Source: Balanoglossus misakiensis
Taxonomy: Eukaryota > Animalia > Hemichordata
Assembly (NCBI GenBank): GCA_040954595.2
Contig: CM082594.2
Coordinates: 5,689,319-5,753,318, forward strand
Reading direction: 5' to 3'
DNA length: 64,000 nucleotides
Made by a program: the position numbers and the translations under genes. This document shows, piece by piece, positions 2,031 to 64,000 of the stretch. Position 1 is the first letter of the stretch, and each line of letters begins with the position of its first letter. The notes under the pieces are model-generated. The model did not search any database and was not told the DNA's origin. It saw nothing but the letters and a program-made list of their open reading frames with translations.

Positions 2031-2073
<43 letters not shown>

Positions 2074-3405
2074 TGATATCGTCAAAACCAACGTTCTTTA
2101 TTTTATGGAAAGCAAAGAAAGTGACAGTTACAGAGAGTAAATCACAAAGCTGCAAGTAAAAAAAAAACGACCTCACATTACCTTGCCGTGTCTGCAGAAG
2201 ACAGGGCCTTCACAGCATGTTCACAGGCAGACCTCAGCTTTGCCAATGAACGCCAATCACTTTGTATGTTTTTGCCATGCCTGTCTTCAAATTCTTGAAC
2301 GAAGTGGTTGACTAGACTCTCCACAAAGTCTTCGCCTCCCAGGCCGATGTCACCTGCAGTGGACTTGACCTCAAAGATGCCATCATCAACGTTCAGAATG
2401 GATACGCTGAGACTGCCGGCCCCAAGGTCAAAGACTAAAATGTTACGCTCTGTTTCTTTCTGTTATAAAGCAAGAAGAAAATAATGAAAACAAGTTAAAC
2501 CTTTGCCATGCATGATTTCACATTTATATTAACCATAGCTAATTTCTAAAACAGTAATTGTACCTACCCTGTCCTGGAATCCATATGCTACACCAGCAGC
2601 AGTGGAGGCAGTAATGGTCCAGACTTTGTCAAAACCAGCAATACTTCCTGCATCTTTTATGCTCTGTCTCTGTTTATAGGTAGAGCCTGCTGGAACACTG
2701 ACTACCGCAGAATCTACTTTCTGTGTTCAACAGAGAAGAAAAAAAATGTCTTTTGTAATGATTCCAGAGATGGTAAAAAGTTTTCTTTCAGTCAAATGAT
2801 ATATTTTACTTGATCTTATGTTACCTTATTAAGATGTGCTTCAGCATTTCCTTTCAACTTTGCCAATGTCAGGGCGAAGATCTCTTCAATCCTGAAAACC
2901 TTGGTAACACCTCTTTGTGTGATACGAACGCATTGCCTGCCATGGTCGTCTACAAATTTCCATGGCAACGGAGCTGTAAATGATGAATCTCCTCCTTTAT
3001 CACCGATGAGGCGTTTGGTGTCTGAAAGATAATTTTGTTTCAGAAACTGTAATGCTCATTATGAAATATATGTACATAACACAGAAGCTGGCCACAGAGA
3101 TTGAAAATTTGATATCGTCACCTATGCTTGACAGCATGCATCCAACAATGTCTATACCCACAATCACAATATGCAAATTGATGATACTTACTGAATGCAG
3201 TATTCTCTGGGTTCGCTGTGACCTGATTCTTTGCTGCGTCGCCGACAACGCAACCATTCTCAGTAAAAGCCACGTAGCTCGGCGTTGAGGTGCCGCCCCA
3301 GTCGTTGGGAATGACATCTACTTTTCCGTCCTGGAATACACAGGCTCTGGAATTGCTTGTTCCAAAGTCAATTCCAATGCTGGTGGCTCTTTCAGTAGCC
3401 ATCAT
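73..3405 (-). CDS. Divergent HSC70/HSP70-family protein, 9 coding exons, ~640 aa
   Basis: Exons 3192-3405, 2825-3021, 2568-2720, 2182-2459, 1657-1934, 930-1288, 624-789, 296-498 and 73-147 are joined by GT-AG introns and stay in frame (1923 nt). HSP70 motifs include [55 protein letters not shown] and VYEGE. It ends ...AFCESLFKQ* with no EEVD. Confidence 0.93.
2035..2072. repeat. (TG)n microsatellite in an HSP70 intron
   Basis: Direct TG run. Confidence 0.95.
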
Positions 3406-11529: not shown

Positions 11530-25143
<13,614 letters not shown>

Positions 25144-37900: not shown

Positions 37901-39525
37901 TTTTATGGTTCAAACTGACCATTGTCAATGTCCAAATTCCTATCTGAATACCTCTCAACATTTCTAAGGACTGTTTTGTTTTATTTTTTTAGCCCTGAAA
38001 CCAATCCTTGTTGCAGCAAAGAGTGCAGTTTTTACACAGAGAGTGATGATATGCTGTGTAGAGAAGATAGTGCATGTGTTGATGCAGCTTACTGTCAATA
38101 TCCTTTATACATGTTATTTCATCTGTCGTCTTGTGCTCTTCAGACCCTATATCCCCATTTCCCTATGTGTTGGGCCAGCTTTACAATAGAAAACAGTAGG
38201 TTTAGACTAAACCATGGTGGTGAAAGGGGTAACCATGTAACTCTTCACTAAATCTTTCGTCTTAATGTCAGTTGTAATCCCCGGGCCTACATGTACACCA
38301 ATGTAAGCTTGGGTCCTCCCGCTGAAAGCAAATTAGTGGGTGGACCATTTGCTCACATTAGGGCCACTTGCATCTGCCTTTCAAATGCATAATGTGCAAA
38401 ATTTTACCAGGTGAAATAGGATATCTGTTACCGGTATTCCTTGACAAATGTGTTTAAGGATGATGGCTTATGTTCCAGTCCTGTGTTCAAACCAGATGGA
38501 ACAATGTGCAGTGCTGACATGATATGCTTTGATGGAGTAAGTGTCCTGTTTTGTTTTGTAGTGTACTGTACTGTGCTGAACTGTTCAATTCTGTGGGTGA
38601 CATTTGCCTGGCATGTGTATTTTGCAAACAATAATGTCCTTGTATCTAATCTTGTTAATAATGCATTTAATTATTTTCATTATATACAAGGAATGCTCCA
38701 GTTCACTCTGTGAAGTGTATGGCTTTGAGAGATGCCAGTGCAGTCTGGAATCAGAACTGTGTCATTTATGCTGCACTGTGGATGGAACTTGCATGTAAGT
38801 CTTGGTGTCACTCATGCCAGTTTTGACTACAGTATTCTGTCAATAACAGATCAAAAGTTACTTTCTGCAGGAGATTTTAATATCTGAAATGTGACTGATT
38901 TACTTATGAATCAGATCTTGTTAAAGAAAGATCATACTATAGTACATTATAAACTTTTCAAAGTCCTACTCACATCTGACATGTACCCTACAAGTTGGAC
39001 GATCATTGGTGAGACCCCAGTTTTTACTTTGTATGTTCCAGCTCATCATATAATATAGACAACATGGCTGATGCAAAGGTCCAGCCTGGACGTCCTTGTA
39101 ATGGCTTCAAGGGTTACTGTGACAGTGATCTCCGATGCCAAGAGGTAATGCATTATTCATTTCTCTCTGTAGAATTTGTCACCACACAGTTAAGCATATA
39201 TTTCAGTAGTTGGCGTTGGCTGCATTTTATAAGCAGAAGTCTGACAACCAAGTCCAACTAGATACTTGCATATCATTTCTAATGTTCACTTGTTTTTAAT
39301 CTTGCTCGTCAGGTGGAACCCAAAATTGAATTGCTGCCCATTGTGATAGAAGAGGGTTCGTCTCTGTCGTCCTGGTTACCAGGCCACTGGTGGGTCATCA
39401 TCTTAATCGTCTTGGCAACTGCAGGTGTCATTGTCGTCATTGGATACAAAGTAATGCAACGGCCAGGGCAGGTCATACCCGAAGAAGCCGGTCCAGACTC
39501 TTCCCTCTACGCACAAAATGCATAG
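34666..39525 (+). CDS. ADAM10: ADAM10/Kuzbanian-like metalloprotease-disintegrin, 12 coding exons
   Basis: Exons ~34666-34732, 34945-35077, 35306-35427, 35825-36528, 36629-36757, 37078-37258, 37495-37653, 37993-38097, 38458-38536, 38691-38794, 39042-39144 and 39313-39525. Contains a signal peptide, prodomain [10 protein letters not shown], furin site [26 protein letters not shown], zinc motif [12 protein letters not shown], disintegrin [28 protein letters not shown], a TM helix and a short tail. Probably a paralog rather than the main ortholog. Confidence 0.88.
34786..34916. repeat. (TGGA)n/(TAGA)n microsatellite in ADAM10 intron 1
   Basis: Direct repeat. Confidence 0.95.
38098..38457 (+). 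other. U12-type (minor spliceosome) intron with AT...AA termini
   Basis: 5' site ATATCCTT at 38098 and U12 branch consensus TTCCTTGAC at 38437-38445. The frame-preserving 3' junction at a plausible distance from the branch point is ...TTTAA|G at 38457/38458. Confidence 0.8.
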
Positions 39526-40246
39526 CTGAGAAGACTATTCAATTTTGTACATAAAGTTACTGTGCTTTTAGAATGTTACCACTGAGTTTTAGATAACACA
39601 GAACTATGCTGTGTATATTTTCTTGATGATTTTGGACTTTTGGAAACTATGAACTTGTTTCAGTATACTGTTTTGTATTGATTAATTAAACATACCTGTT
39701 GGTATGTGATTGACTACTGTTTTAAAAGTAAGGAATTTATTGCTTTGCATATGAATTTTGTGAAGTTGCCACATGACTGGTTATACAGTCTGAATTCTTG
39801 ATTTCACTTATTAGACTTGTATAAAGACAGATTTTTTAAAGACTTGCAAATGATTCATTTTATATATCCTCAGGCTGTCATTATTTTATTTGTATGGTGT
39901 TTAAATGTAATAAATATTGAATTACATAGGAAAGGAGGAATTTTTCATGGCTCTTCCCTGCAGAAATAGGGTGCATAGCAACATTTTGTTGTGTAAATTG
40001 CCCAGAATTTCAAAATCTAACACTGACCCAAGGCAAACAACGTGTAATAGTATGACAGATTCAACGCACGGCATCTGTATGTGTATAGTTATAGAAAAAC
40101 AAAAGCCTAGCACTTCATTTGTGCAAGAGGGCGGCAGCTAACAGAGGAAATCGCCGGCGAACAAACACACCGGACCCACGCCATCTCCAGTAATCTAAAA
40201 ATAAAGAAAGGAAATCTGACCGGCGTTGAGTCAAAACCTGGAGAAA

Positions 40247-44486
<4,240 letters not shown>

Positions 44487-45786
44487 TGGAACTGTCAAGG
44501 TTTGTGTATGAAAAATACTGTCAGGGTCTGTTGTGAAACTGATTAAGATTTGGGCTATGCCCAATGCTTCAGTAGGTACAATATGATTGGTTTACACCTG
44601 TTTGGGGGCCTTTCACTAAAGAAATCAACCAATTAGAGACAAGCTTACAATCTGATAATTATTTTCCGTTTTCTTCCTTTCAGAGTATAGCACCGATGTG
44701 GACCATGTTGAGAGACTACAAGTTTTAGATTTGTTTTCAAATCTACAGAATTCTGGTATTTTGTACACCATCTCATGTTCACTGTCCTGTTCAGTGGATG
44801 GCCAATGTTGAAATACCTTCTCTGTTTTTGTTTTCAAAGACAAGAAAAGAAGAGAAAGTTAATAACTGATGTAACCCAATCTTCATCATTTTATTCTTTG
44901 TATGGTCTTTTTTTCCTCCATAAAAAAATAAAGCTTTGTAATTTTAGTCCTATTATCTACGTGATGTATTGTTGTAGCTGCATCTTTGTGCACGGTATTT
45001 CTACATCTGTGATGTCATCTAGCAAGTTTCTGTAAACTTATTTTTTTTAACCAAAGTATATTTAACCCTGACTTCTGTGTATGATTTTAATAGTTTTAGA
45101 ATAAGTTCATAAACATCGTAAGGTCAGATGTGCTGATTTTTGAAATAGAAAGGCCTGCCATCTTATTTGTATATATGTGAACCTAATCCATGCCGTAGCA
45201 GAACAGAGCAAAACTAAGGGTCCAACCATTTGTGTAAGTTGGGGGGGGGGGGGTGACCACTGGTAATATACAGTGACTCCATGATGGCCACGTCCTTTCA
45301 CGTGTTTGTGGTTAAAACAAAATAAATTATCCATATTTTGCATCTTCAAATTGTAGATCCGCCTTAATTATGAATTAAAATATTACAACAGTCGATAATC
45401 TGACTTGAGTATGTCTTAATTATTGAAGAGCCTGTACTGTATTTTTGAGTCAATCATAGATTTATAGATGTCCTTTTGACCATATATAGGCATACGTAAA
45501 TTAGTGGTGACAATATGCCTTTAAAACTGAATCTGACATTAATTATCGTGAATTTTTAGAAACATTTTATTGCAAGTTCTTTCTTTACACCAAAGTCGAG
45601 TTCAAGAGGGAAAAAAAAGAAAATAAAAGTACACACATTTAATAAAGTTTTACACCAGTCTTAAAACAAAAATCGGGCCTCAAAAACAGACCACTTATCT
45701 ACGAATTTACTACTCATTTCGTTTCGCAAAATACATTTCAGTCTGCTTGGTAGTTCTAATACGAGGCTTCTTGAAATCATACATTT

Positions 45787-46583
45787 TCATCGTATGTCCA
45801 TATTCTGCTCACACTCTTCGACCTTTCTGATAAGCGGACGTCTGCCAATGCGTTCCAATAACTGTTTCAGCAACTCGAGGTTATTGTCGAAGATTCCTTT
45901 ATCCTCCAAGGCCTTCAGTACATCCTGAAAAGTTTTCAACTTTTCCAGCTCTCTCTTAGCTAGCTGCTTTCCCTCCAGTAGCTTTCTTATTGCATGTTCC
46001 TCGTCCTCTCCGAGTTGGTTGTGCAAGTAGAAATACAGATCTGCACGGTGGTCTATCAATCCGCTTGAGGCCGCAACTACGTTTGAGGCCGCAGCTGATA
46101 AAAACAATGAAAACTGGTTGAGTTGCACACAAGTAAAGTACTAACCATCGATTTTTTCTCAAACCACCCCGTTTGGATGCTATTTTATCATTACACAACT
46201 AACAGTACATACACATTTTCCAGGACCGTATGGACCGTATGTACACTCACACTTTCCAAAGCGCACCATGCGTATAGGCCTAGATCTGACCATTTTTGTT
46301 CCGAATGCGATCATCACTTACCCTCGGTCCGTGACGAGAGGAAATCTTCAAACCGTCCAAGCAATTCTTGACATGGAACCTTTTTCAGGACTTCTCGAAC
46401 GACCTGTTTACATCTGCTGAGTTCAAAGTGACGTAGGAGGAGATCTACTACGTCATCCGAGTCGTTCGCCTCCTCAAGTTTTCCAGCAGGTATGCCGTAT
46501 TCTTTCAAGTATGTTTTCGCACGTTTAATTTCCTTCACTTTCATTTCGTCAAATATGTTTACGAGAGTACTTCTGTCTGTCAT
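45787..46583 (-). CDS. Death-fold adaptor unit 1: PYRIN-like domain + DED, 189 aa
   Basis: Exon 46322-46583 (phase-1 GTAAGT) plus exon 45787-46094 (AG acceptor) gives 570 nt in frame. Domain 2 (LAKRELEKLKTFQDVLKALEDKGIFDNNLELLKQLLERIGRRPLIRKVEE) aligns by eye with the FADD DED. Confidence 0.85.
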
Positions 46584-46869
46584 GTTTTAAGACAAAGAGT
46601 GTTCTCTAACCTAAAAAGAAACAAAATTACAGTTACAATGTGTGTGTTTCTATCTATCTATGTATCTGTGCATATGTATATACTCCATTTTACACAATGC
46701 TCATTTGACATTTCAAGGACTTAGATGTGTATGAAAAACAATCGATGAACTTTAGTACTACATGTATTTTTTATCGTTGCCCTTATCGACCACACGTTCA
46801 CCGGGCCTTTGTCCCCATAACCAGAAGGTGGGACTTTGCTCCACTATTTGACCTCTTGGTTTTTACTTC

Positions 46870-46879
46870 GGAAATCCCC
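46870..46879 (-). promoter_or_regulatory. Consensus NF-kB site GGGGATTTCC, repeated at 49513, 52152, 54542 and 56804 (degenerate at 60956)
   Basis: GGAAATCCCC on the + strand at the same relative position, ~200-400 bp 5' of each unit's ATG. An AP-1 motif TGACTCA follows ~23 bp later in units 1-5. Confidence 0.6.
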
Positions 46880-48454
46880 GTTTTGTCCCCAAACTTTATA
46901 TGACTCACAGTTTCGATACCTTTCTACGGTAATGGCGACCATGCGTTTTTTTTTCGTTTTATCTCATAAATTCTTGGACTGACAAGATTTTTTACAAGAT
47001 AAGTTTCCAGTCCTGCCATAACATAAATGTCCAGTTAACTTAGTGCAAATGCAGCTGATGTTTCAAATTAACAAATTTGAAATGGCTCCTGGCCAAACGT
47101 TTATCCAATATGTACATCTGGTTAAGGTATATCCTTAGTCTGTTATAACGCTCTAAGGGCAACTCTGTGAAATGAATTTTACCAGCGACATTCACTTCTG
47201 AAACGACAAACACAACGAGCGCAAGTTTCGTATAAACAAGGTCGTAAATAATAAATCGTATGTTTTTTTATGGTGGATTAGTTCCGCAACGTCACAGCCA
47301 AGAGATTTCATTTGCCATGGAAAGGGACGAATATGTGTACTGCCGTGAAATGTCGAGAAAACGGGAAAGGTATGACAAAGCTTTTGCAAAAATAATGCGT
47401 ATGACTCAAGGAAATTCACTGTAACACCGAACAATAAAGGGCGGGTATAACCACACCTAGCCCAGGTCTGAAGATTCCATTGCAGGCGCTAGTTTAAGGT
47501 ATAAAGTATTCGTTTTGCTGATTTTTGTTAGTTTGAGATCTAGGTTAACCCAGCATTCCGGGTATATTAAAAAAGTGAAACATACCTGATAATGTTCCGT
47601 CTCTTTCCGTTGGAAGAAAACGCTTTGGTGTTCACAAAAGAAAAGGGGGTCAAAGCTGCCGTTTATCTAGGTGGTGTGTTTTCTGAGAAACCCTCTTAGA
47701 GGTAAATGGTGCAATTGGTTGCTGTCAATCACGTGTCGCACTAATGAGACTGCGCATGCAGGCTGTCTGGACCACTTGAGTCAAAAACACGTTGATACAT
47801 GTTCTGGTGTATCCCACGTTTGCATTTATCACGTATGTGCTATGTGTTGTCATAGAGACGGACAATGAACAAAATAATGCCTTCTCAACTTGACGCATAT
47901 TCTTGATCGGCTTTATCCAACAATCAATGGATTTCCGCCACATACACATTCATTGTCAATCAGAACTAATGCGAGAGCCAGGGATTGAAAAGTGCCCCTT
48001 TAACATTCAAGATTTTAGTGTTGCTAAGGTTTGTGATTTTATGTTAAGAGAGGTCAAAAGCGGTGACCTGGTTTCAGGGCGAAGGAACACCACTAAGCAA
48101 TTATATTTATGGTGCATTCACAGATCACCATGATATCTGTCTAAACTGTGAAAATGTATGTTGTTTGAAGTCATGCATATTGCAGAATGATTGCAACTAC
48201 ATTTGTAAGTAATGGCGTACATAGTAATCGGAAAGTGAACATTTGCAATTGCTTTCACGTTATTCTTTATTTGTCGTATCTAATTGTTACAATATCATTG
48301 TAGCAATGTTTACAAACAAGGCGACGTATCTAGCTAGTTGTACACTAGTCTTAAAACAAAAATCATGCCTCAAAAACAGACCACTTATCTACGAATTTAC
48401 TACATTTCAGTCTGCTTGTAGTAGTAATACGAGGCTCTGTGAAATCATACATTT

Positions 48455-49236
48455 TCATCGTTTTTCCTTATTCTTCTCACACTCTTCGACCTTTTTGATA
48501 AGTGGACGTCTGTCGATCTTTTCCAATAACTGTTCCAGCAACTTGAGGTCTTTGTCGAAGATTCCCTTATCCTCCAAGGCCTTCAGTACATCCTGCAGAG
48601 TTTTCAGCTTTTCCAGCTCTCTCTTAGCCAGCTGATTTCCCTCCAGTAGCTTTCGTATTTTGTGTTCCTCGTCTTCTCCGAGTTGGTTGTGCAAGTAGAG
48701 ATACAGATCTGCACGGTGGCTTATCGATACGTTTGAGGCCGCAGCTGAAAATACAATGAAAACTGGTTGAGTTGCACACAAGTAAAGTACTAACCATCGA
48801 TTTTTTTCTCAAACCACCCCGTTTGGATGCAATTTTATAATTACACAACTAACAGACTGAGTACAGACACGTTTTCCAGGACCGTATGGACGGACACTCA
48901 CACTTTCCAAAGCGCACCATGCATATAGGCCTAGATCTGACCATTTTGTTCCGAAGGCGATCATCACTTACCCTCGGTCCGTGGCGAGAGGAAATCTTTA
49001 AACTGCCCATTCAGCAATTCTTGACATGGAACCTTTTCCAGGACTTCTCGAACGACCTGTTTACATCTGTCGGGTTCAAAGTGACTTAGCAGGAGAGCTA
49101 CTATGTCATCCGAGTCTTTCGCCTCCTCAAGTTTTCCAGCAGGTATCTCGTATCCTTGCAAGTATGTTTTCGCACGTTTAATTTCCCTCCCTTTCATTTC
49201 GTCTAATATTTTTACGAGGGTAATTCTGTCTGCCAT
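48455..49236 (-). CDS. Death-fold adaptor unit 2: PYRIN-like + DED, 184 aa
   Basis: Exons 48972-49236 and 48455-48744 have canonical splice sites and give 555 nt in frame. Confidence 0.85.
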
Positions 49237-51101
49237 GTTTTAAGATAAAGAGTGTTCTCAAACCTAAAAAGAAACAAAATTACAGTTACAATGCGTGTGT
49301 TTCTATCTATCTATGTATTTGTGCATATATATGTACTTCATGCTCATTTGACATTTCAAGGACTTAGATGTGTATGAAAAACAATCGATGAACTTTAGTA
49401 TTACATGTATTTTTTATCGTTTCCCTTACCGACCACACGTTCACCGGGTCTTTGTCCACATAACCAGAAGGTGGGACTTTGCTCCACTATTTGACCTCTT
49501 GGTATTTACTTCGGAAATCCCCGTTTTGTCCCCAATCGTGTTATGACTCAGTTTCGATACGTTCAGTAGTCTTTGAAACCTTCCTACGGTAATATGGACG
49601 ATGTTGTGTTTTTTTTTCGTTTTATCTAATAAATTCTTGCATTAACAATTAAGTGCAAATGCATGTCTAGTTAACTTAGTGCAAATGTAACTGTTCTTTC
49701 AAATTAACAAATTTGAAATAATTCCTGGCCAAACGTTTATCCAGTATGTACATCTGGTTAAGGTATATCCTTAGTCTGTTATAACGCTCTAATGGCAACT
49801 CTGTGAAATGAATTTTACCAGCGACATTCACTTCTGAAACGACAAACACAACGAGCGCAAGTTTCGTATAAACAAGGTCGTAAATAATAAATCGTATGTT
49901 TTTTATGGTGGATTAGTTCCGCAACGTCATAGCCAAGAGATTGCATTTGTCATGCAAAGGGACGAATATGTGTACTGCCGTGAAATGTCGAGAAAACGGG
50001 AAAGGTATGGAAAAAGTTTATGCTAAAATAATGCGTATGACTCAAGGAAATTAACTGTAACACCGAACCATAAATGGTGGGTATAACCACACCTAGCCCA
50101 GGTCTGAATATTCCATTGCAGGTGCTGATATAAGGTATAAAGTAATCGTTTTCATTTTGCTGATTTTTGTTAGTATGAGATTCAGTTTAACCCAGCATCC
50201 CGGGTATATTAAAAAAGTTAAACATACCTAATAATATTCTGTCCTTTTTGATGGGAAAAAACGACCTGGTGTTCACAAAGGAAAATGGAGTCAATGCTGC
50301 CCGTTTATGTAGGTGGTATATGTTTTCTGAGAAGCCCTCTTAGAGGAAAATGTTGCAATTGGTTACTCTCAATCACGTGTCGTAATGAGACTACTGCGCA
50401 TGCAGGCTGTCTCGACCACTTGAGTCAAAAACACGTCGATACATGTTCTGGTGTATCCCACGTTCGCATTTATCACGTATGTGCTATGTGTTGTCACAGA
50501 GACGGACAATCAACAAAAATACTGCCTTCTCAACTTGACGCATATTCTTGATCGGCTTTATCCAAAAATCAATGGATTTCCGCCACATACACATTCATTG
50601 TCAATCAGAACTAATGCGAGAACCAGGGATTGAAAAGTGCTCCTTTAACATTCAAGATTTTAGTGTTGCCAGGTTTGTGATTGTATGTTAAGAGAGGTCA
50701 AAAGCGGTGACCTGGTTTCAGGGCGAAGGAACACCACTAAACAATCATATTTATGGTGCATTCACAGATCACCATGATATCTGTCTAAACTGTGTAAATA
50801 TATGTTGTTTGAAGTCATGCATATTGCAGAATGATTGCAACTACATTTGTAAGTAATGGCGTACATAGTAATCGGAAAGTAAACATTTGCAATTGCTTTC
50901 ACGTTATTCTTTATTTGCCGTATCTAATTGTTACAATTATATCATTATAGCAATGTTTACAAACAAAGTGACGTATCTAGCTAGTTGTACACTAGTCTTA
51001 AAACAAAAATCATGCCTCAAAAACAGACCACTTATCTACGAATTTACTACATTTCAGTCTGCTTGTAGTTGTAATACGAGGCTCTGTGAAATCATACATT
51101 T

Positions 51102-51874
51102 TCATCGTTTGTCCATATTCTTCTCACACTCTTCGACCTCTTTGATAAGCGGACGTCTGCCGATCTTTTCCAATAACAGTTTCAGCAACTTGAGGTCTTC
51201 GTCGAAGAATCCTCTCTCCTCCAAGGCCTTCAGTACATCCTGCAGAGTTTTCAGCTTTTCCAGCTCTCTCTTAGCCAGCTGATTTCCCTCCAGTAGCTTT
51301 CGTATTTTGTGTTCCTCGTCTTCTCCGAGTTGGTTGTGCAAGTTTAGATACAGATCTGCACGGTGGCTTATCGATACGTTTGAGGCCGCAGTTGAAAATA
51401 CAATGAAAACTGGTTGAGTTGCACACAAGTAAAGCACTAACCATCGATTTTTTTCTCAAGCCACCCCGTTTGGATGCTATTTTATCATTACACAACTAAC
51501 AGTACAAACACATTTTCCAGGACCGTATGGACGGACACACTTTCCAAAGCGCACCATGCGTATAGGCCTAGATTTGACCATTTTTGTTCCGAAGGCGATC
51601 ATCACTTACCCTCGGTCCGTGGCGAGAGGAAATCTTTAAACTGCCCATTCAGCAATTCTTGACATGGAACCTTTTCCAGGACTTCTCGAACGACCTGTTT
51701 ACATCTGTCGGGTTCAAAGTGACTTAGCAGGAGAGCTACTATGTCATCCGAGTCTTTCGCCTCCTCAAGTTTTCCAGCAGGTATCTCGTATCCTTGCAAG
51801 TATGTTTTCGCACGTTTAATTTCCCTCCCTTTCATTTCGTCAAATATTTTTACGAGGGTAATTCTGTCTGCCAT
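51102..51874 (-). CDS. Death-fold adaptor unit 3: PYRIN-like + DED with a mutated exon-2 acceptor
   Basis: Exons 51610-51874 and 51102-51391 are open, but the acceptor reads TTTTCAA instead of TTTTCAG. An in-frame cryptic CAG lies 18 nt upstream (exon start 51409). Confidence 0.7.
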
Positions 51875-53710
51875 GTTTTAAGATAAAGAGTGTTCTCAAA
51901 CCTAAAAAGAAACAAAATTACAGTTACAATGTGTGTGTTTCTATCTATCTATGTATTTGTGCATATATATGTACTTCATGCTCATTTGACATTTCAAGGA
52001 CTTAGATGTGTATGAAAAACAATCGATGAACTTTAGTATTACATGTATTTTTTTATCGTTGCCCTTACCGACCACACGTTCACCGGGCCTTTGTCTACAT
52101 AACCAGAAGGTGGGACTTTGCTCTACTATTTGACCTCTTGGTTTTTACTTCGGAAATCCCCGTTTTGTTCCCAAACTTTATATGACTCACAGTTTCGATA
52201 CCTTTCTACGGTAATGGCGACCATACGGTGTTTTTTTCGTTTTATCTCATAAATTCTTGGGCTGACAAGTTTTTTTAAAAGATAAGTATTCTGTCCAGCC
52301 ATAACATAAATGTCCAGTTAACTTAGTGCAAATGCAGCTGATGTTTCAAATTAACAAATTGAAATGGTTCCTGGCCAAACGTTTATCCTGTTATAACGCT
52401 CTAATGGCAACTCTGTGAAATGAATTTTACCAGCGACATTCCCTTCTGATACGACAAACACAACGAGCACAAGTTTCGTATAAACAAGTAAATAATAAAT
52501 CGTATGTTTTTTATGGTGGATTAGTTCCGCAACGTCATAGCCAAGAGATTGCATTTGCCATGGAAAGGGACGAATATGTGTACTGCCGTGAAATGTCGAG
52601 AAAACGGGAAAGGTATGAAAAAGCTTTTGCAAAAATAATGCGTATGACTCAAGGAAATTCACTGTAACACCGAACCATAAATGGTGGGTATTACCACCAC
52701 ACCTAGCCCAGGTCTGAATATACCATTGCAGGTGCTGATATAAGGTATAAAGTAATCGTTTTCATTTTGCTGGTTTTTTTAGTATGAGATCAAGGTTAAC
52801 CCAGCATCCCGGGTATATTAAAAAAAGTCAAACGTACCTAATAATATTCCGTCCTTTTTTGATGGGAAAAAACGACCTGGTGTTCACAAAGGAAAATGGA
52901 GTCAATGCTGCCCGTTTATGTAGGTGGTATATTTTCTGAGAAGCCCTCTTAGAGGAAAATGGTGCAATTGGTTACTCTCAATCACGTGTCGTAATGAGAC
53001 TACTGCGCATACAGGCTGTCTCGACCACTTGAGTCAAAAACACGTTGATACATGTTCTGGTGTATCCCACGTTCGCATTTATCACGTATGTGCTATGTGT
53101 TGTCACAGAGACGGACAATCAACAAAAATACTGCCTTCTGAACTTGACGCATTTTCTTTATCGACTTTTTTTCTAAAATCAAATGGATTTCCGCCACATA
53201 CACATTCATTGTCAATCAGAACTAATGCGAGAACCAGGGATTGAAAAGTGCCCCTTTATCATTCAAGATTTTAGTGTTGCCAGGTTTGTGATTTTATGTT
53301 AAGAGAGGTCAAAAGCGGTGACCTGGTTTCAGGGCGAAGGAACACCACTAAACAATTATATTCATGGTGCATTCACAGATCACCATGATATCTGTCTAAA
53401 CTGTGAAAATGTATGTTGTTTGAAGGCATGCATATTGCAGAATGATTGTAATTACATTTGTAAGTAATGGCGTACATAGTAATCGGAAAGTAAACAGTTT
53501 GCGATTTCTTTCACGTTATTCTTTATTTGCCGTATCTAATTGTTACAATATCATTGTAGCAATGTTTACAAACAAGGTGACGTATCTAGCTAGTTGTACA
53601 CTAGTCTTAAAACAAAGATCATGCCTCAAAAACAGACCACTTATCTACGAATTTACTACATTTCAGTCTGTTTGTAGTAGTAATACGAGGCTCTGTGAAA
53701 TCATACATTT

Positions 53711-54240
53711 TCATCGTTTTTCCATATTCTTCTCACACTCTTCGACCTTTCTGATAAGCGGACGTCTGCTGATCTTTTCCAATAACTGTTTCAGCAACTC
53801 GAGGTCTTCGTCGAAGAATCCTCTCTCCTCCAAGGCCTTCAGTACATCCTGCAGAGTTTTCAGCTTTTCCAGCTCTCTCTTAGCCAGCTGATTTCCTTCC
53901 AGTAGCTTTCGTATTTGGTGTTCCTCGTCTTCTCCGAGTTGGTTGTGCAAGTAGTGATACAGATCTGCACGGTGGCTTATCAATACGTTGGAGGCCGCAG
54001 CTGAAAATACAATGAAAACTGGTTGAGTTGCACACAAGTAAAGTACTAACCATCGATTTTTTTCTCAAACCACCCCGTTTGGATGGTATTTTATCATTAC
54101 AAAACTAACAGTACAGACCCATTTTCCAGGACCGTATGGACACTCACACTTTCCAAAGCGCACCATGCGTATAGGCCTAGATCTGACCATTTTTGTTCCG
54201 AAGGCGATCATCACTTACCCTTGGTACTTCTGTCTGCCAT
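53711..54240 (-). CDS. Death-fold unit 4: DED-only protein (~103 aa) from an in-frame deletion of domain 1
   Basis: Exon 1 is reduced to 22 nt (ATGGCAGACAGAAGTACCAAGG|GTAAG, 54219-54240) and is still phase 1. The DED exon 53711-54000 is intact with a CAG acceptor. Confidence 0.72.
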
Positions 54241-56347
54241 GTTTTAAGATAAAGAGTGTTCTCAAACCTAAAAAGAAACAAAATTATAGTTGCAATTACC
54301 ATGCGATGCCTGCCTGCCCGCCTGACATTTCAAGGACTTAGATGTGTATGAAAAACAATCAATGAACTTTAGTATTTATACATGTAATTTGTCATTAAGC
54401 AGACCGAGATCGCCACGGTTGTCATTTTGCACAGGCCTACTATGGTATTTTCCCTTACCGACCACACGTGCTCGGGGCCTTTGTTCACATAACCAGAAGG
54501 TGGGACTTTGCTCCACTATTTGACCTCTTGGTTTTTACTTCGGAAATCCCCGTTTTGTCCCCAAACTTTATATGACTCACAGTTTCGATACCTTTCTACG
54601 GTAATGGCGACCATACGGTGTTTTTTTTCGTTTTATCTCATAAATTCTTGGGCTGACAAGTTTTTTACAAGATAAGTTTTCAGTCCTGCCATAACATAAA
54701 TGTCTAGTTAACTTAGTGCAAATGCAGCTGATGCTTCAAATTAACAAATTGAAATGGTTCCTGGCCAAACGTTTATCCTGTTATAACGCTCTAATGGCAA
54801 CTCTGTGAAATGAATTTTACCAGCGACATTCCCTTCTGATACGACAAACACAACGAGCACAAGTTTCGTATAAACAAGTAAATAATAAATCGTATGTTTT
54901 TTATGGTGGATTAGTTCCGCAACGTCATAGCCAAGAGATTGCATTTGCCATGGAAAGGGACGAATATGTGTACTGCCGTGAAATGTCGAGAAAACGGGAA
55001 AGGTATGAAAAAGCTTTTGCAAAAATAATGCGTATGACTCAAGGAAATTCACTGTAACACCGAACCATAAATGGTGGGTATAACCACCACACCTAGCCTA
55101 GGTCTGAATATTCCATTGCAGGTGCTGATATAAGGTATAAAGTAATCGTTTTCATTTGGCTGGTTTTTGTTAGTTTGAGATCTAGGTTAACCCAGCATCC
55201 CGGGTATATTAAAAAAGTAAAACATACCTAATAATATTCCGTCCTTTTTGATGGGAAAAAAACGACCTGGTGTTCACAAAGGAAAATGGAGTCAATGCTG
55301 CCCGTTTATCTAGGTGGTATATTTTCTGAGAAGCCCTCTTAGAGGAAAATGGTGCAATTGGTTACTCTCAATCACGTGTCGTAATGAGACTACTGCGCAT
55401 GCAGGCTGTCTCGACCACTTGAGTCAAAAACACGTCGATACATGTTCTGGTGTATCCCACGTTCGCATTTATCACGTATGTGCTATGTGTTGTCATAGAG
55501 ACGGACAATGAACAAAATACTGCCTTCTCAACTTGACGCATATTCTTGATCGGCTTTATCCAAAAATCAATGGATTTCCGCCACACACACATTCAATGTC
55601 AACAAGAACCTATGCGAGAGCCAGGGATAGAAAAGTGCTCCTTTAACATTCAAGATTTTAGTGTTGCTAAGGTTTGTGATTTTATGTTAAGAGAGGTCAA
55701 AAGCGGTGACCTGGTTTCAGGGCGAAGGAACACCACTAAACAATCATATTTATGGTGCATTCACAGATCACCATGATATCTGTCTAATCTGTGTAAATGT
55801 ATGTTGTTTGAAGTCATGGATATTGCAGAATGATTGCAACTACATTTGTAAGTAATGGCGTACATAGTAATCGGAAAGTAAACATTTTGCAATTGCTTTC
55901 ACGTTATTCTTTATTTGCCGTATCGAATTGTTACAATATCATTATAGCAATGTTTACAAACAAATTGACATATCTAGCTAGTTGTGTACTCGGGTTTACT
56001 TCATTCACTGCTTCAAATTACTGTAGGTATCCATGACGTCATGAAACAAGTGATCTTCAACACACGACTCTTCTTCAAGTGGATGGGAAACCTTGAAAGA
56101 AATCAATAAAGAATTGAGTCAATGTAGATGATGACCATCATCATTAATATCATCCGTGCTGCAAAGATTAAATCCGTCTTTAAAATTATATACTTGAGGC
56201 GTTTTCTTTATTGAATACATACACACTTAAATCACTAAGGGATTAAACTGATCTGTCGGAAACTTAGCATGTTGATTAACGTCTCAATACTTTGAAACCT
56301 ACACCATCTGACCATTTGTTTTCCAAAGGAGAAAACTTACCGTAGGT

Positions 56348-56602
56348 CTATGAGAAGATGTAATAGTCAAACTTGTCAAGTAAGTCTTGACGCGGGATCT
56401 TTCTTATGACTTGTTGAACGACCTGTTTACGTGCAGTACGATCAAAGAACCCCTGGAAGAGACCTGCCATGTCAACAGAGTCCTTCACTACCTCAAGCTT
56501 CCCAGCAGGTATGTTGTATGCTTTCAAGAATTCTTTCACGAGTTTCAGTTCATTCCCTGTCATCTCGTCAAATATTTTTATGAGGGTCTCTCTGTCGTCC
56601 AT
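56348..56602 (-). CDS. Death-fold unit 5: single-domain PYRIN-like protein, 84 aa
   Basis: Homolog of domain 1 (IPAGKLE, DSVDMAGLF, IPRQDLL). TAG lies 7 nt before the retained GTAAG donor, and no DED exon follows. Confidence 0.78.
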   Translation of the reverse strand: MDDRETLIKIFDEMTGNELKLVKEFLKAYNIPAGKLEVVKDSVDMAGLFQGFFDRTARKQVVQQVIRKIPRQDLLDKFDYYIFS

Positions 56603-57609
56603 GATTTATAGAGTGGCAAAAGTCTCCACAAACCTTTAAAAGAAACAAAAATGTAATCACATGCATGCATGCATGCATGGATATATGTATTACGAGTGTA
56701 GGCCCTGCTTACACGAAACTGACCAGTCATGCACCGCCTATGATCACCGCTGTCCACAAATCCAGGACAGAAGGTAAGACTTTGCCCCACTGATTTTTAT
56801 TTCGGAAATCCCCGTTTTGTCCCCCCAAATTTTATATGACTCAGTTTCGATACGACAAGGAGTCTTTGAAACCTACCTACCGTAATGGCGACCATTGTTT
56901 TTTCGTTATATCTCATAAATTTTGTATTAACAAGTGTTTTACAAGATAAGTTTTCTGTCCGGCCATAACATGCATGTCTGGTTAACTTGATTTTTGTCAG
57001 TTTGAGATCCAGGTTAACCCAGCATCCCGGGTATATTAAAAAAGTGAAACATACCTGATAATGTTCCGTCCTTTTTGATGGGAGAAAACGACCTGGTGTT
57101 CACAAAGGAAAATGGAGTCAATGCTGCCCGTTTATCTGGGTGGTATGTTTTCTGAGAAGCCCTCTTAGAGGAAAATAGTGCAATTGGTTACTTTCAATCA
57201 CGTGTCGTAATGAGACTGCGCATGCAGACTGTACTGTCTCGACCACTTGAGTCAAAAACACGTTGATACATGTTCTGGTGTATCCGACGTTCGCATTTAT
57301 TCACGTATGTCTATATGTTGTCACAGAGACGGACAATGAACAAAATAATGCCTTCTCAACTTGACGCATATTCTTGATCGGCTTTATCTAAAATCAAATG
57401 GATTTAACCTGATAAATATTTCAGTGGGTTTCCATTCAATGTCAACATGAACTAATGCGAAAACCAGGGATTGAAAAGTGCTCCTTTAACATTCAAGATT
57501 TTAGGGTTGCCAGGTTTGTGATTGTATGTTAATTGAGAGGTCAAAAGCGGTGACCTTGTTTAAGGGTGAAGGAACTCCGCCAAACAATACCATTTAGGGT
57601 GCACTCACA

Positions 57610-59007
57610 AACTACTCTGGTTCCCTGTCCTAGTGTTACCGCTGGCTGCGCTATGTTTACGAATGGGGTCCTGTGCGTTAATCGTACTGGACAAAATGGA
57701 CGCTGTTTGTTACTAATAGTCTTCTGATCACTGCCAAACTTATGATCGTCCCAGTCAATTTGATGTTGTAATGGGTTCGTGTAAGCTCTTGTATAGCGTA
57801 CAAAAGTGTGATTGAACTTTTCGACCTGGCAGGCACTTTGTGGGTGATGTCGGGTGGGATAAGCTTTGTTCATACCAAGCAAATCACACACACTGGGAAA
57901 ATTGTCCAGCAATACCTTTGCAACCATATTCTTATGAGCCTCCTCATTGGGGATGGGGTAAGGCTCTACCGACTTGGGCGAAATTATCACCAACTACCTG
58001 TCTTTCGATCAGCCCCACTACTCACAGGAAAAGGTTCCAATTGAATGGCAATGCGCTCAAGGTTTACTGCAACAACATCAGTTTTCAACGATACTCTCTT
58101 TTCCCCTGTGAATAGTTGGTTCTACATAATAACATTCCAATAGCCTATCAGACGGAGTCATAATTGCTGATTTTTTTCGACTTTGGTCATTCAGAGCAAC
58201 CTGATAAACCAGTGCTAAGGTCAACACAACTGAAAGCGTGCTTCACCCAAACCTTTCAAGTTGTTTAGTATACGAGACAAGGGGAACTGCATTTATGCGA
58301 CGAAATTCACACAATCAGCCGAAATGAGTAATCTTTCTTGGCTACAAGTAGACATGGGCTACTCCATGGGGAATCACTCACTACCAACAACCAAACAAAT
58401 GTTGGTATCTGCTTATCAATCTCAGCTTTCTTCCGACCTTCCGACATGGGACAATGTATGGAAACAATTTTATTGGTTTCTCAGTTGTTGTAGGTATGTG
58501 GTGTTTCACTATGTGTCTTATCTCCAAATCTTTGTTGAATCTCTGTTGAATCTTTGCAAAAGACATTAGCATTTGAACAAAATTGAGGGTGGTAAAGGGG
58601 GGGGGGGTTAAAGACTTAGGGTTTCAGGGGAACTGAAGTACTTTGGTTTGGTCCTTTCATAAAAGGACAAAGCCTAATTTTAGGTACCATGTTTTGAAGT
58701 TAATTTTCAAGGTATAATTGCTAATCTGAAACATCAGTGTCACAGTTAACCTAAATGGAATCATTTATAGAATTACAGGACTTTTATCGCATCTACAGTA
58801 TGAAATGCTATTGTGTTTCTCTAAAAACAACTAATAGGATGTGTTGGTTACAAAACAACCACTGTACTTTTGATTTTGAGCACACTCTGAGTCACTGTAC
58901 ATACTAAAGTAGACATACAGTCTTTGCATATTTGTTGCTCTTGCATCTCTGATAAGTGTAATGACCCCTAAAAGTTAGGTTTATTTCCAAATGACACAAT
59001 TTACTTT
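57610..59007 (-). mobile_element. Insertion containing decayed Gypsy/Ty3 LTR-retrotransposon pol fragments
   Basis: Interrupts the shared spacer block at ...gtgcactcaca|, and homology resumes near 59008. The minus strand gives integrase-like HPQSACQVEKFNHT...QIDWDD (57541-57993) and pre-RT-like VKHHIPTTTEKPIKLFPY (58381-58572), broken by stops and frameshifts. Confidence 0.7.
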
Positions 59008-60022
59008 CATCACCGTATCTGTCTACAATGTGTGTGTTGTTTGAAGGCATGTATACTACAAAATGGCTGTACAAATGTAATTACATTTATAAGTTACATG
59101 TATGTGTACTCACTATAAGATCAGACAAGTGAACATTTGCAATTGCCTTCATGTCATTCTTTATTTGCCATTTATGTAAGTAAATCATTCACCTGTAGTC
59201 CGCTCACGTAGAATACTTTTTTTATGTAGGAACAAGGAAGATTCGTGAGGTGCTATCTCTCATTGTCACAGGTGTCATCTGGGTACCATGCAAATTAGCC
59301 GCGCCGAGACAAAAAGTCACGTCACACCTGCTAGCTGCTGCCATCGCCCAAATTGTACGAATTTGATTGGCCTTCAAAGGGGAAATTTTCAATCCATGGT
59401 CCCCGCATCAGTTATTGTTGATAATGAATATTTGTATAGTGGAAAGCTTTTGTTTTCAATTGATATCTTTTTTATCAAGTAATCTATTTACTTTCAAATA
59501 AAGCTGAAAAAGCAGGCGCAGGTTAAAGCTAAATTTCAGAGAATTTTGCTAAAGGAGAAAATGCGGTTTTATCACCTCAAAAGCTTGTTTACCATGATAT
59601 AAACGAGGACTCGTGGGTGACTTTTTTCTAGTATAAGACATTACATGGAAAGGCATGGTTATAGCATATGATGTCACAGTCTAGATAAGGTCTTGTGAAC
59701 TTTAGGTTGACAGTAGTACATCCGCTTGTGGTAAAAGAATTACATATTAAATGTCTAGTCTAATGATAGTTGTGACAAACTCTTCTTTGAAAGGAATTAT
59801 GATACTCTCCCTCACTATTTGAATTTCACAGCTAAGTGGCTAAACTATAATCTAATCATAGCAATGTTAATAAACAAAGTGACAAATATAGTAGTACTCG
59901 GGTTTACTTCATTCACTACTTCAAAGTATCCATGACGTCACAAATATGTGATCTTCAACTTCTTCAAGTGGATGCCAAACCTTGAACGAAAGCAATGAAA
60001 ACTGAGTCAATGTACATGATGA

Positions 60023-60024
<2 letters not shown>

Positions 60025-60097
<73 letters not shown>

Positions 60098-60143
60098 GTC
60101 ATCGTCATCGTCATCGTCATCATCATCATCATCATCATCATCG

Positions 60144-60205
<62 letters not shown>

Positions 60206-60229
60206 GCCACCACCATCATCATCATCATT
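60025..60229. repeat. (CAT)n trinucleotide microsatellite
   Basis: Long CAT run with CGT variants. The paralogous site in unit 5 (~56127-56145) has only a few units. Confidence 0.95.
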
Positions 60230-60329
60230 AAAAGACTAATATGCTCTGTCGGAAACTTAGCATGGGCGCCATATATCTGCGTACATCAGGTCATTTGTGT
60301 TCCTAGGGAGAAAACTTACCTTAGGTCTA

Positions 60330-60581
60330 TTACTCGATGTAGACTTGAAACTTGAGAAGTAAGTCTGCACGCGGGATCCTTTCTAGGACATATCGAACGG
60401 TCTGTTTACGTTCAGAGGGGATATAGTAAACCTGGAAGAGATCCGCCATGTCATAGGAGTCCTTCACGTTCTCAAGCTTTCCAGCAGGTATACCGTAATC
60501 TGTCAAGATTGCTTTCACGTGCTTCAATTCACCCCCCTTCAATTCGTCAAATATTTGTATGAGGGCCTCTCTGTCTGCCAT
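60330..60581 (-). CDS. Death-fold unit 6: single-domain PYRIN-like protein, 83 aa
   Basis: MADREALIQIFDELKGGELKHVKAILTDYGIPAGKLENVKDSYDMADLFQVYY...VLERIPRADLL. Stops TAA TAG precede the retained donor. Confidence 0.8.
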   Translation of the reverse strand: MADREALIQIFDELKGGELKHVKAILTDYGIPAGKLENVKDSYDMADLFQVYYIPSERKQTVRYVLERIPRADLLLKFQVYIE

Positions 60582-60851: not shown

Positions 60852-61573
60852 ATTTTATCGTTTCCCTTACCGACCACACGATCAGCGGGCCTTTGTCCGC
60901 ATAATAAGGAGGTGGGACTTTGCCCCACTATTTGACCTTTTAGTCGTTATACTTCGGAAATTCACGTTTTGTCCCCCAAAACTTTTTATGACTCTATGTA
61001 TGTACGTAGGCCTACATGTATGAAAAGAATGGAGAAATTTGTCTTCGTGGTATATATGCATCTAGTGAAAAACATGTCTTCCACCGCTGGGACAGACTTA
61101 TGTTCCACTCCGGACTGTGGACATGTTTGTAAAATATAACCATCGCTAGTAATAAATTCCAGCTCCTACCGTCCGCAATTCTGATAGGACGAGAGCTCAA
61201 TCCAGCGATGCTAAAATTAAGCAATAATGCACTGCTAAAACGGGCCCCTGAACTAGCATACGGCGGCAAAAATGTGCGGTTAAACCACAGTCGCGCGTGT
61301 TTAAACCAAATAAATAAAACAAAAATACTGTTGAATTAACGGACGTTTTATTTTGGAACTGCTCTGTGGAAATATTTGTCACTTTGCCACGCGCGATGCC
61401 CGTCTTGTCACTTTTTGTCGCCTGCTTCATGTTTAATGCTCGATCCCGGCCGCTCGTGTTTACATTCATCGTCGCCATGTTGGTTCACGATCGTAATTTC
61501 TCTTTCTGACGCCGTTTCGGTAAGAAAATGACACTGATATGCCACAAAAACAATTGTTGATATAATATAATAG

Positions 61574-61711
61574 CAATAACCCCCGCCTCAGTCGGGTATA
61601 CGCTCGATTTGGGCACAATTCTCTCCATATAGCACTCGCCTGACGGCTCGTGCTATATGTCTCGAATTGTACCCAAATCTCGCGTATACCCGCCTGCGGC
61701 GGGGGTTATTG
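61574..61711. mobile_element. ~140-bp palindromic MITE/foldback in the unit-6 upstream region
   Basis: caataacccccgcc...cgggtatacgc.cgatttggg.acaattc...catatagcac mirrors gtgctatatg...gaattgt.cccaaatc.cgcgtatacccg...ggcgggggttattg. Confidence 0.8.
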
Positions 61712-62599
61712 TTTAAATAGCATCGTTGTTGTCCAGTCAGAATGGCCGATGGTAGCATGATATAATATAATGTAATTGCATTTTTTCAAACCTTTTGAAA
61801 ACTACAGTAGTACTTCAGAAATCCCGATTTTCCCCCAAAAGTGTTTGTGCCTCACAGATTTGAAACGTTTACCATTCTTAGAAACCTGTTTACGGCTATG
61901 ATAGCCTAACCATATGATTGTTTTCTTTTATATCATAAATATCATGCATGAATTAGCAATTAGTGTTTTACAAGACTGGTTTTCTTTCAGATCATAACAC
62001 GAACATTCCATGTATGTCTAGTTAACTGTGCTTCAAATTTACACATTTGAAATGGCTCCTGACCAAAGCTAAGCTCTGTTATAAAAGTTTAACGGCAACT
62101 CCGTGAAGTTGATTTCACCAGTGGCGTTCATTTCTAACACGCCAAGCACAGCGAGCACAAGTGATGTCTCGCACAAATAGGGTCGTAAATATTAATTTGG
62201 AGGGCTTTCTTGTGGTTTCGTTTCACTAGGTACCAGTCACTGACGTACTTTGTTTTGATATTGACTGTTTAATTGCCTTTGTAGTCTATGATTTATTCTC
62301 TTTGGGGCGTTTTCCGAGGTGTGTCGAAGGGGCAAACTTTGAGCAAATATTAAAAAAAACGGCTAAGTTTGGCCAGCACAGGTTTGTTTGCGCGCGATAT
62401 GCACTTACAGACTAGCCCACTAGTCGCTTGGTGATTTTTGGAATCTCAATACTTAGTGTGTGTTTGCGGTGATTTTTTGTCTTTATAAATAATCTCAACA
62501 CTTGTCTTGAGCGTGTTTCTGGTAGTGAGGCGAGTTTCGAATTTGGGACTGAGCTCATGGTTTCGGGCAGCGTCGGTATGGGCCTACGCATGTCCTAGA

Positions 62600-62810
62600 C
62601 ACACGCGTTGAACTCGCTGTCTTTTACTCCACACACACTACATAGGAAGACTCGGAACAATTTAAAAAAAATGTATATATTATGAAATAACGAAGCCCTT
62701 AGACTTGGAGCAAGTCTAAGTCTATCTTTCTATGTTAAATTTTTGTAACCCCCTTGCATTTGGGCCGGAGGCCTTGGAACGCAATAAAACTATTCTTCTA
62801 TTCTATTCTA
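62600..62810 (+). mobile_element. Possible retroposon 3' end
   Basis: AATAAA followed by a short (TTCTA)n tail in a segment absent from the other units. Confidence 0.35.
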
Positions 62811-64000
62811 GCTCGCTATACCAGATTAAACTGTCGGAAAATATTTGACCAGGAGCCATTTCAAATTTGTTAATTTGAAACATCAGCTTTATTTGCACTA
62901 AGTTAACGAACAGATTGCATTTGTCATGGAAGGGGACGAAGCGATAGTCTTACTATGAAATGTTGAAAAAGCGGGAATGGTAAGACAGGTTTATTTAAGA
63001 AACGAATATGCTTATGACTCAATGCAAAACTGCTGTGACCGCGAAAATAAATTGTGTCTGATAATGTGGGTCTAAACAGACCAAGCCTACTACGCTGCAA
63101 ATTCTCTTGAATTGAAATTTCAACACATTGGTTTGGCCTCAAGCCGCAAGGGTTTACTGACAAGCCATACCGATTTACTTACTGAAGTAATATCGGTACC
63201 GGTTTTTCCACAAGCAAGCTAAAATCAAGCCAATTTTGAAGAAACGAAACAATCCGATTAGCGACAAACAAGCCGGTTTGATTTTGGCTTGAAATTAGCT
63301 TGTGAGTAAGTCAAAAGAATTTGCAGTGTAGTAGCTTTGTTCGTAAGATTCATTACAGGTGCTATTTTTAGGTATAATGTAATCGACGTTTTCATTTTGC
63401 TGTTTTTTTGTAGTTTTATCCCAAAGGGATATCGTATAAAACAAAAAAGTGATACATACTTTACAATATTCCGTCTTTTATCGATGGAAGAAAACGCCTT
63501 GGTGTTCACAAAGTAGTAAATTCCGCCTTTGACCAAGGTCTTGTTTTCTTATATGCCTAGAGAAATGGTGCGATTGGTTGTTGTCAATCACGTGCCGTAA
63601 AGAGACTGCGTATGCACACTATCTTGACCACGTGAGTCAAACATGTTGAGTCAAGTCATGCTAGTATCTAGCCGTATTTTTGTCCGCTTTGCTTCCAAAA
63701 ATAACGTCTAGCATCATGCATGTCACCGGCCCAATAAGTCCTTTGCTGGGAATTGTGATGTAACTAGCAGCGTGTCTTTTAAGTCAGTCAATCACGTACT
63801 TTGTTTTTCCAATGATTGGACATAGAATACACATATGTATGTGTAATTAAGGATATTTTAAATTCAAATTAGCCCTGCATTCATCATAATCTTACACTCA
63901 TTCACGATTGTTCGGTTTATGTAATTGACTTCTAGGGGGACCACAGCAAGGGGTATCAGACTCTATTGGGCCAGTGGCCGGCCAGTGGCATGCATGACGG

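Follow-up and report, generated by a model that had tools for sequence, protein, structure and literature searches.

The vertebrate adaptor ASC (PYCARD) consists of a pyrin domain (PYD) at its N terminus, a linker and a second death fold, the CARD, with no enzyme attached. In amphioxus the ASC-like adaptors bbtASC-S and bbtASC-L carry a death effector domain (DED) in place of the PYD, and the NLRs of that lineage carry DEDs (PMC3196919). The PYD itself has been described as missing in invertebrates or as restricted to bony vertebrates (PMC2858798, PMC11508797); its absence was stated for amphioxus (PMC3196919), and for invertebrates in general by a survey that took in acorn worms and gave the PYD result as 'data not shown' (PMC8662601). 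Statements of this kind about PYD or ASC were made from 2010 to 2024, the PYD being guessed to have arisen from another death fold. Here we describe a family of PYD-type genes from an acorn worm, the invertebrate deuterostome Balanoglossus misakiensis; it combines PYD-DED proteins with derivatives that keep one domain only. The genes form an array at 45787-60581, on the minus strand, of a 64,000-nucleotide stretch of contig CM082594.2 (the window; all positions are those of the window, and array features are on its minus strand).

The array and its two death folds

Six paralogs (U1 to U6) stand in head-to-tail order. Re-derived gene structures agree with the three architectures proposed in the initial annotation: a PYD-type domain (domain 1) followed by a DED (domain 2) in U1 to U3, a DED alone in U4, and a PYD-type domain alone in U5 and U6. 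None of the products has a catalytic domain. U1 to U3 share one build: first a domain-1 exon of 262-265 bases, then an exon for linker and DED, the two separated by a phase-1 intron (218-227 bases). In U1 (189 amino acids) the first coding exon (46322..46583; 87 codons, phase-1 donor) encodes domain 1 and the second (45787..46094) the linker, the DED and the stop. The corresponding exons lie at 48972..49236 and 48455..48744 in U2 (184 amino acids) and at 51610..51874 and 51102..51391 in U3, where the frame of the DED exon is open and the PYD exon is, in protein, 99% identical to that of U2. U4 (103 amino acids) has lost the PYD by an in-frame deletion that left the first coding exon with seven codons, or 22 bases (54219..54240); this remnant stays in frame with an intact DED exon (53711..54000), giving a DED-only product. 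U5 (56348..56602, 84 amino acids) and U6 (60330..60581, 83 amino acids) end at stop codons 7-10 bases 5' of the conserved donor, and no DED remnant was found behind either by tblastn. Behind the U5 coding sequence a non-coding last exon is predicted at 55910..56091, from an acceptor homologous to that of U1-U4 to an AATAAA polyadenylation signal.

Domain 1 is very probably PYD-type, to judge from sequence and model comparisons. The initial annotation had called it PYD-like rather than DED, and Pfam, searches of PDB sequences and folds, and a search of 1.84 billion proteins all concur. In Pfam all five copies score above the PYRIN cutoff (PF02758; 26.5-39.7 bits against 22.9) and none above the DED cutoff (15.9-27.8 bits against 35.9). 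Even in raw bits four of the five are higher as PYRIN than as DED (PYRIN 36.8 vs DED 23.9 for U1, 39.7 vs 16.1 for U2 and 30.2 vs 20.3 for U5; U3 has a PYRIN score of 37.7). Across the acorn-worm family 11 of 14 members match PYRIN at E<=0.1. When a profile of these 14 sequences was run against PDB sequences, all 21 matches at E<=0.001 were PYD proteins and the best DED had an E of 0.019. U6 is 33% identical to the PYD of frog ASC.

Structural models gave the same ranking. The AlphaFold model of domain 1 (predicted local distance difference test score 77.6, third helix short), taken from U2, is closest to the NLRP3 PYD (Z 13.5, root-mean-square deviation [rmsd] 2.2, 83 residues aligned). Among 48,161 solved chains the top 12 are all PYD proteins (Z 13.5-9.4), the best DED having a Z of 9.2; the pyrin-only protein cPOP1 scores 11.9. 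Foldseek returned no match at E<=0.001, and PYDs occupy the ranks above the first DED, which is at rank 27. The domain-2 model ranks the other way, with the FADD DED first (Z 13.4, rmsd 1.5, 86 aligned), MC159 and PEA-15 at Z 12.9 and 12.7, and the best PYD at 10.8; that the two domains give opposite rankings indicates that the fold search tells PYD from DED. Domain 2 had been annotated as a DED, and it is one by Pfam in three of its four copies (43.4, 37.6 and 39.9 bits in U1, U2 and U4, above 35.9), U3 falling slightly below the cutoff at 35.2 bits.

The two-domain forms resemble ASC in having an N-terminal PYD-type domain, a linker, a second death fold and no enzyme. They differ from it in that the second fold is a DED and not a CARD, in belonging to an invertebrate lineage, and in the predicted direction of reading, which is the opposite one (see below). 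The difference from the amphioxus adaptors is that the PYD-type domain and the DED are found together. U5 and U6, with one PYD and no further domain, have the architecture of vertebrate pyrin-only proteins (POPs) such as POP1/PYDC1 and cPOP1, and like these and the CARD-only proteins (COPs) they come from a tandem cluster; the sequence likeness is one of architecture and does not imply orthology. U4, as a single DED, may be compared with the death-fold-only proteins cFLIP-S, vFLIP MC159 and PEA-15. The array as a whole differs from these in that domain 1 is not assigned to the DEDs, the FL and RxDL motifs are altered and the linker is variable; by inspection it runs from about 10 to 40 residues across family members, unlike the rigid tandem DED.

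Relatives in other acorn worms and the ancestry of the domain

The window-profile search of 1.84 billion proteins gave 93 matches. A PYRIN match is present in 86 of them (25 in one group of 30, 61 in the remaining 63). Thirty of the 93 were looked up and comprise nine Ptychodera flava, one Saccoglossus kowalevskii and 15 vertebrate proteins and five without a name. Top single-domain scores belong to Ptychodera proteins, which are the nearest for both domains (about 40% identity for domain 1 and 53% for the DED); after the acorn-worm proteins of Ptychodera and Saccoglossus, the next-closest relatives of domain 1 are vertebrate PYDs. At least five Ptychodera clusters (P0003, P0004, P0009, P0010, P0100) have the PYD-DED architecture; XP_070544111.1, XP_070545573.1, XP_070575743.1 and XP_070548766.1, all named 'uncharacterized' at source, are examples. 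Saccoglossus XP_006821045.1, equally 'uncharacterized', is a double PYD. We found no paper describing these Ptychodera and Saccoglossus proteins. Some of the records already bear a precomputed PF02758 tag, so that the invertebrate PYD has been latent in annotation. In the open-access literature we found no description of a PYD-DED adaptor architecture and no report of an invertebrate PYD, although subscription papers or the supplements of PMC8662601 and PMC11508797 might hold one. A paper describing hemichordate immune proteins of the GT4 and death-fold kinds has no PYD in the part of its text available or in the 12 of its 13 supplements examined (PMC8195603).

In Ptychodera the domain is also fused to other partners. 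Two proteins (P0005 and P0032; XP_070534084.1 and XP_070534099.1) carry one or two N-terminal PYD-type domains on a FAM111-like trypsin protease in which the His, Asp and Ser catalytic motifs are present. The domain is further found with GT4 (P0006, P0007) and with a TRAF3-like protein. Adaptor domains on proteases, with predicted homotypic recruitment, are known from a cnidarian Death-Trypsin_2 cluster and bacterial EAD1-trypsin proteins (PMC7159879) and from the PYD caspases caspy and caspase-15 (PMC12292325), and the acorn-worm version differs in combining a PYD-type domain with a FAM111-like protease. The Atlas cluster nearest to P0005 and P0032 is the cnidarian Death and Trypsin_2 family. 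P0006, P0007, P0095 and P0026 are PYD-type proteins with GT4-conflict glycosyltransferases or a TRAF3-like coiled coil. The PYD of P0006 is nested within the PYD-DED clade (support 99-100), a position that suggests exon shuffling. Among the nearest vertebrate matches are shark CD20/MS4A-like membrane proteins with a PYD (P0020, P0024) and a snake 'FADD-like' protein with a PYD and a death domain (P0033).

Other searches contributed little. Word-index protein searches with an alignment of window sequences only gave no relative among 6814 and 70 candidates, and are insensitive here since true relatives exist; with a wider alignment they gave seven matches, all acorn-worm and including no NLR and no caspase, by a method that is weak for long proteins. 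Two metagenome scans (566 and 387 pattern matches) gave no relative.

Is the resemblance to vertebrate PYDs one of descent? Two trees were made, a quick one of 76 rows with 44 of 80 vertebrate PYDs, and a second of 43 rows from which five long or duplicate rows had been dropped and 16 vertebrate PYDs kept; the DEDs in them are seven, all acorn-worm. In both, the acorn-worm domains group in a clade of their own, with Shimodaira-Hasegawa-like approximate likelihood ratio support of 92 for 17 of 18 rows in the first tree and 97 for 15 of 15 in the second. The clade stands apart from the vertebrate PYDs and from the long DED branch, and the base is without resolution. Vertebrate contamination or transfer was considered and is ruled out by the acorn-worm clade spanning two genera, by the intron-bearing genes and by the Ptychodera-like DEDs.

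Two results limit the case for a PYD ancestry of domain 1. In approximately unbiased tests each of the three ways of grouping domain 1, vertebrate PYD and DED survives (p 0.57-0.63), and U6 has more raw bits as DED (27.8, cutoff 35.9) than as PYRIN (26.5, cutoff 22.9), yet only PYRIN clears its cutoff. Together with the unresolved deep tree, the sampling of only seven acorn-worm DEDs and the mixed PYRIN/DED character of the nearest Atlas clusters, the U6 score leaves a place for the view that domain 1 branched off the acorn-worm DEDs and came to resemble PYD in sequence by convergence, U1-U3 then being tandem-DED proteins like vFLIP or cFLIP-S with no special vertebrate-PYD ancestry. We think this very unlikely. 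Pfam, the PDB sequences and the PDB folds, which were not chosen by PYD similarity, and the 1.84-billion-protein search all rank PYD over DED; no copy of domain 1 reaches the DED cutoff, and the domain is nearer to PYD; in profile-profile comparison vertebrate PYDs score 121.9 with it and the DEDs of its own family 30.2, though this is partly circular as the vertebrate set was gathered by similarity; and it is found singly, too, on proteases and GT4 proteins. A putative common ancestry with the vertebrate PYD is the simplest explanation of the sequence similarity, and the origin of this inflammasome module would then likely predate the vertebrates.

With a PYD-type family found in the Balanoglossus window and in two acorn-worm genera, structures and cross-seeding with ASC can be used to test where the PYD came from. 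Even if the wiring proposed below is wrong, the known distribution of the PYD needs revision.

Predicted wiring of the adaptor

The initial annotation took the PYD to face a sensor and the DED to nucleate a chain of caspase-8/10-like enzymes. This direction has some points in its favor: the PYD-first order mirrors ASC, the domain-2 model is nearest to the FADD DED, PYD-GT4 proteins could be sensors, and only 30 of the 93 matches have been looked up by name, the word-index searches being weak for long proteins. The partners, however, speak for the reverse. Among the 73 NACHT proteins of Ptychodera 25 are DED-NACHT and none is PYRIN-NACHT, and Saccoglossus likewise has no PYRIN-NACHT (PMC13012124, Dataset S5). 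The word 'PYRIN' next to an accession from a sea urchin, in one of that paper's supplementary trees, was provisionally taken as a legend label, that species having no PYRIN-NACHT. No hemichordate PYD-NLR was found among the 30 matches looked up, and the two or three NACHT-bearing PYD matches (P0071, P0073, P0088; species unnamed) have architectures of the vertebrate type or fall with vertebrate PYDs in the tree. Those PYD partners that turned up in acorn worms are enzymes.

The DED itself also argues against the annotated direction. The FL motif is the means by which FADD recruits caspase-8 (PMC4819448). A nucleating DED of the FADD type has this motif and an E/D-RxDL charge triad; in the array DED F25 of FADD is replaced by Lys and D74 by Pro (RxPL for RxDL), with E19 and R72 retained, and the FL motif is found in none of seven aligned family DEDs. 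The original direction is therefore distinctly unlikely.

On these grounds (25 DED-NACHT against no PYRIN-NACHT, enzymes as PYD partners, no FL motif) we favor a reversed ASC, in which the two-domain forms would bridge DED-NLR sensors to PYD-bearing enzymes and be damped by the single-domain copies; from sequence, we put the chances of this at about even. Infection would induce the array genes through a shared kappaB-type promoter block. An activated DED-NACHT platform would bind the DED of the adaptor, which, having no FL motif, would terminate the DED chain instead of carrying it on to a caspase-8-like enzyme. The PYDs so displayed would gather into clusters to which PYD-fused enzymes would be recruited, and this clustering would activate the FAM111-type protease by dimerization, as ASC does for caspase-1. 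Human FAM111A is dimerization-dependent and antiviral (PMC10920703), and a non-caspase protease becomes a candidate PYD effector. The PYD-only U5 and U6 would compete as vertebrate POPs do, and the DED-only U4 as a COP or a PEA-15-type decoy. To read the array as adaptors plus decoys is plausible. It may also be that certain units are duplicates in decay and not designed parts. The fuller proposal, that the PYD is a pre-vertebrate deuterostome invention and that acorn worms have a caspase-independent PYD inflammasome (DED-NLR to PYD-DED to PYD-FAM111 or PYD-GT4) with independently evolved POP-like and DED-only decoys, is offered tentatively, as somewhat less probable than its converse.

Several observations weigh against the reversed-ASC reading. 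The counts of PYD-enzyme and DED-NLR partners are those of Ptychodera flava and not of the array's own genome. PYD and DED filaments have a common symmetry and can bind one another (PMC12066828, PMC11874512), which makes a PYD-DED adaptor plausible but weakens the assumption of purely homotypic wiring. The loss of FL and RxDL is equally compatible with a pure inhibitor.

The last point leads to another explanation, in which every product of the array is an inhibitor and nothing is bridged: an NF-kB-induced feedback kit would cap DED chains and PYD filaments in the manner of cFLIP-S, POPs and COPs. Besides the DED without FL and with RxPL, it would account for the lack of a catalytic domain and for the arginine of the RxDL-like motif in the last PYD helix, which U1-U3 have lost and U5 and U6 retain. 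Vertebrate decoy clusters arise by tandem duplication with domain loss, and the array shows both, with a shared kappaB-type block. We nevertheless consider an all-inhibitor array unlikely. The two-fold architecture with its variable linker is kept in the five or more Ptychodera clusters, as it is in the adaptors ASC, FADD and the amphioxus DED-bearing ASC (PMC3196919), and a DED-NACHT sensor side and a PYD-protease enzyme side require a bridge.

Expression signals, selection and neighboring genes

The promoter architecture that the initial annotation ascribed to all six paralogs is borne out by a promoter alignment, in which the block is present in six of six units. It includes motifs that we take to be AP-1-like, TATA-like and kappaB-type, the kappaB consensus also being our assumption and the sites putative. 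The kappaB-type site matches exactly in five units (U1, 46870..46879; U2, 49513..49522; U3, 52152..52161; U4, 54542..54551; U5, 56804..56813) and is a variant in U6 (60956..60965, placed by the promoter alignment).

The array's own features hold further points against a working adaptor system. The enrichment of kappaB matches over chance is marginal (seven observed in the window against 3.0 expected, with at least seven in 6 of 100 shuffles), and the copies are not independent. Splice sites of two units carry mutations that had gone unnoticed: the donor of the 5'-untranslated-region intron of U1 is AT in place of GT (46785..46786, from the promoter alignment), and the acceptor of the U3 DED exon has AA where AG is expected, with alternative in-frame AGs at -18 and +36. 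U2 is the PYD+DED copy with canonical tested splice sites at all three introns. Pairwise ratios of nonsynonymous to synonymous change (dN/dS) are 0.6-1.4 and never differ significantly from 1, and a comparison of hydrophobic-core with other positions is not significant in four of six pairs.

The dN/dS ratios near 1 and the splice-site mutations in U1 and U3 fit the idea that recent duplication left mostly neutral debris in the array, with one or two working copies and single-domain forms that are accidental. U2-U4 show equal coding and non-coding divergence in two pairs, and the U4 deletion had a one-in-three chance of keeping the frame. We regard this explanation as highly improbable. At 46-60% protein identity to the other units and to each other, U5 and U6 still have open frames and the hydrophobic core, which is retained at 20 of 20 positions in four copies and at 19 of 20 in U6; in the two other pairs the core has fewer changes than the rest (p 0.03 and 0.017). 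In neutral simulations a frame stays free of stops with probability 0.20 when there are 0.2 substitutions per site and 0.08 when there are 0.4, so that the open frames are unlikely but not impossible under neutrality. Between U1 and U2-U4 the coding divergence (0.11-0.12) exceeds the non-coding (0.06-0.07; p 0.01 to 7e-5), an excess expected under diversifying selection, although patchy gene conversion can do the same. Folds under constraint with rapidly changing surfaces would give this pattern, as would gene conversion, and individual copies may still be decaying.

U1-U4 arose recently as copies of a unit of about 2.65 kb and are 85-91% identical; the older U5 and U6 show 70-72% identity to them over the coding exon. 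Birth and death shape the array, in which U1, U3 or U4 may be decaying. The duplicated unit (45646-55985) takes in the 3' flank of U5, with AATAAA at 48271, 50915, 53527 and 55915, and U2-U4 appear to use the copied U5 polyadenylation region.

The 3' end of a DZF-domain gene (about 42515-44900, plus strand; ILF2-like by eye, Pfam DZF_N) converges on the array. The window also contains genes for an M12B/ADAM-type metalloprotease (35253-40000, plus strand) and a secretin-family seven-transmembrane receptor (5006-6673, minus strand) and, by eye, an EGF-repeat MEGF-like gene (about 15800-22400, minus strand) and an Hsp70-like gene (about 600-3400, minus strand). Between U5 and U6 is a 128-codon open reading frame (57541-57927, minus strand) with no Pfam match, by eye a retroelement integrase fragment. 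Beyond U6 there is an imperfect palindrome of 138 bases (61574-61711), and at 62029-63649 pieces of the unit upstream region are repeated in both orientations; the palindrome and the repeats are possibly small transposons.

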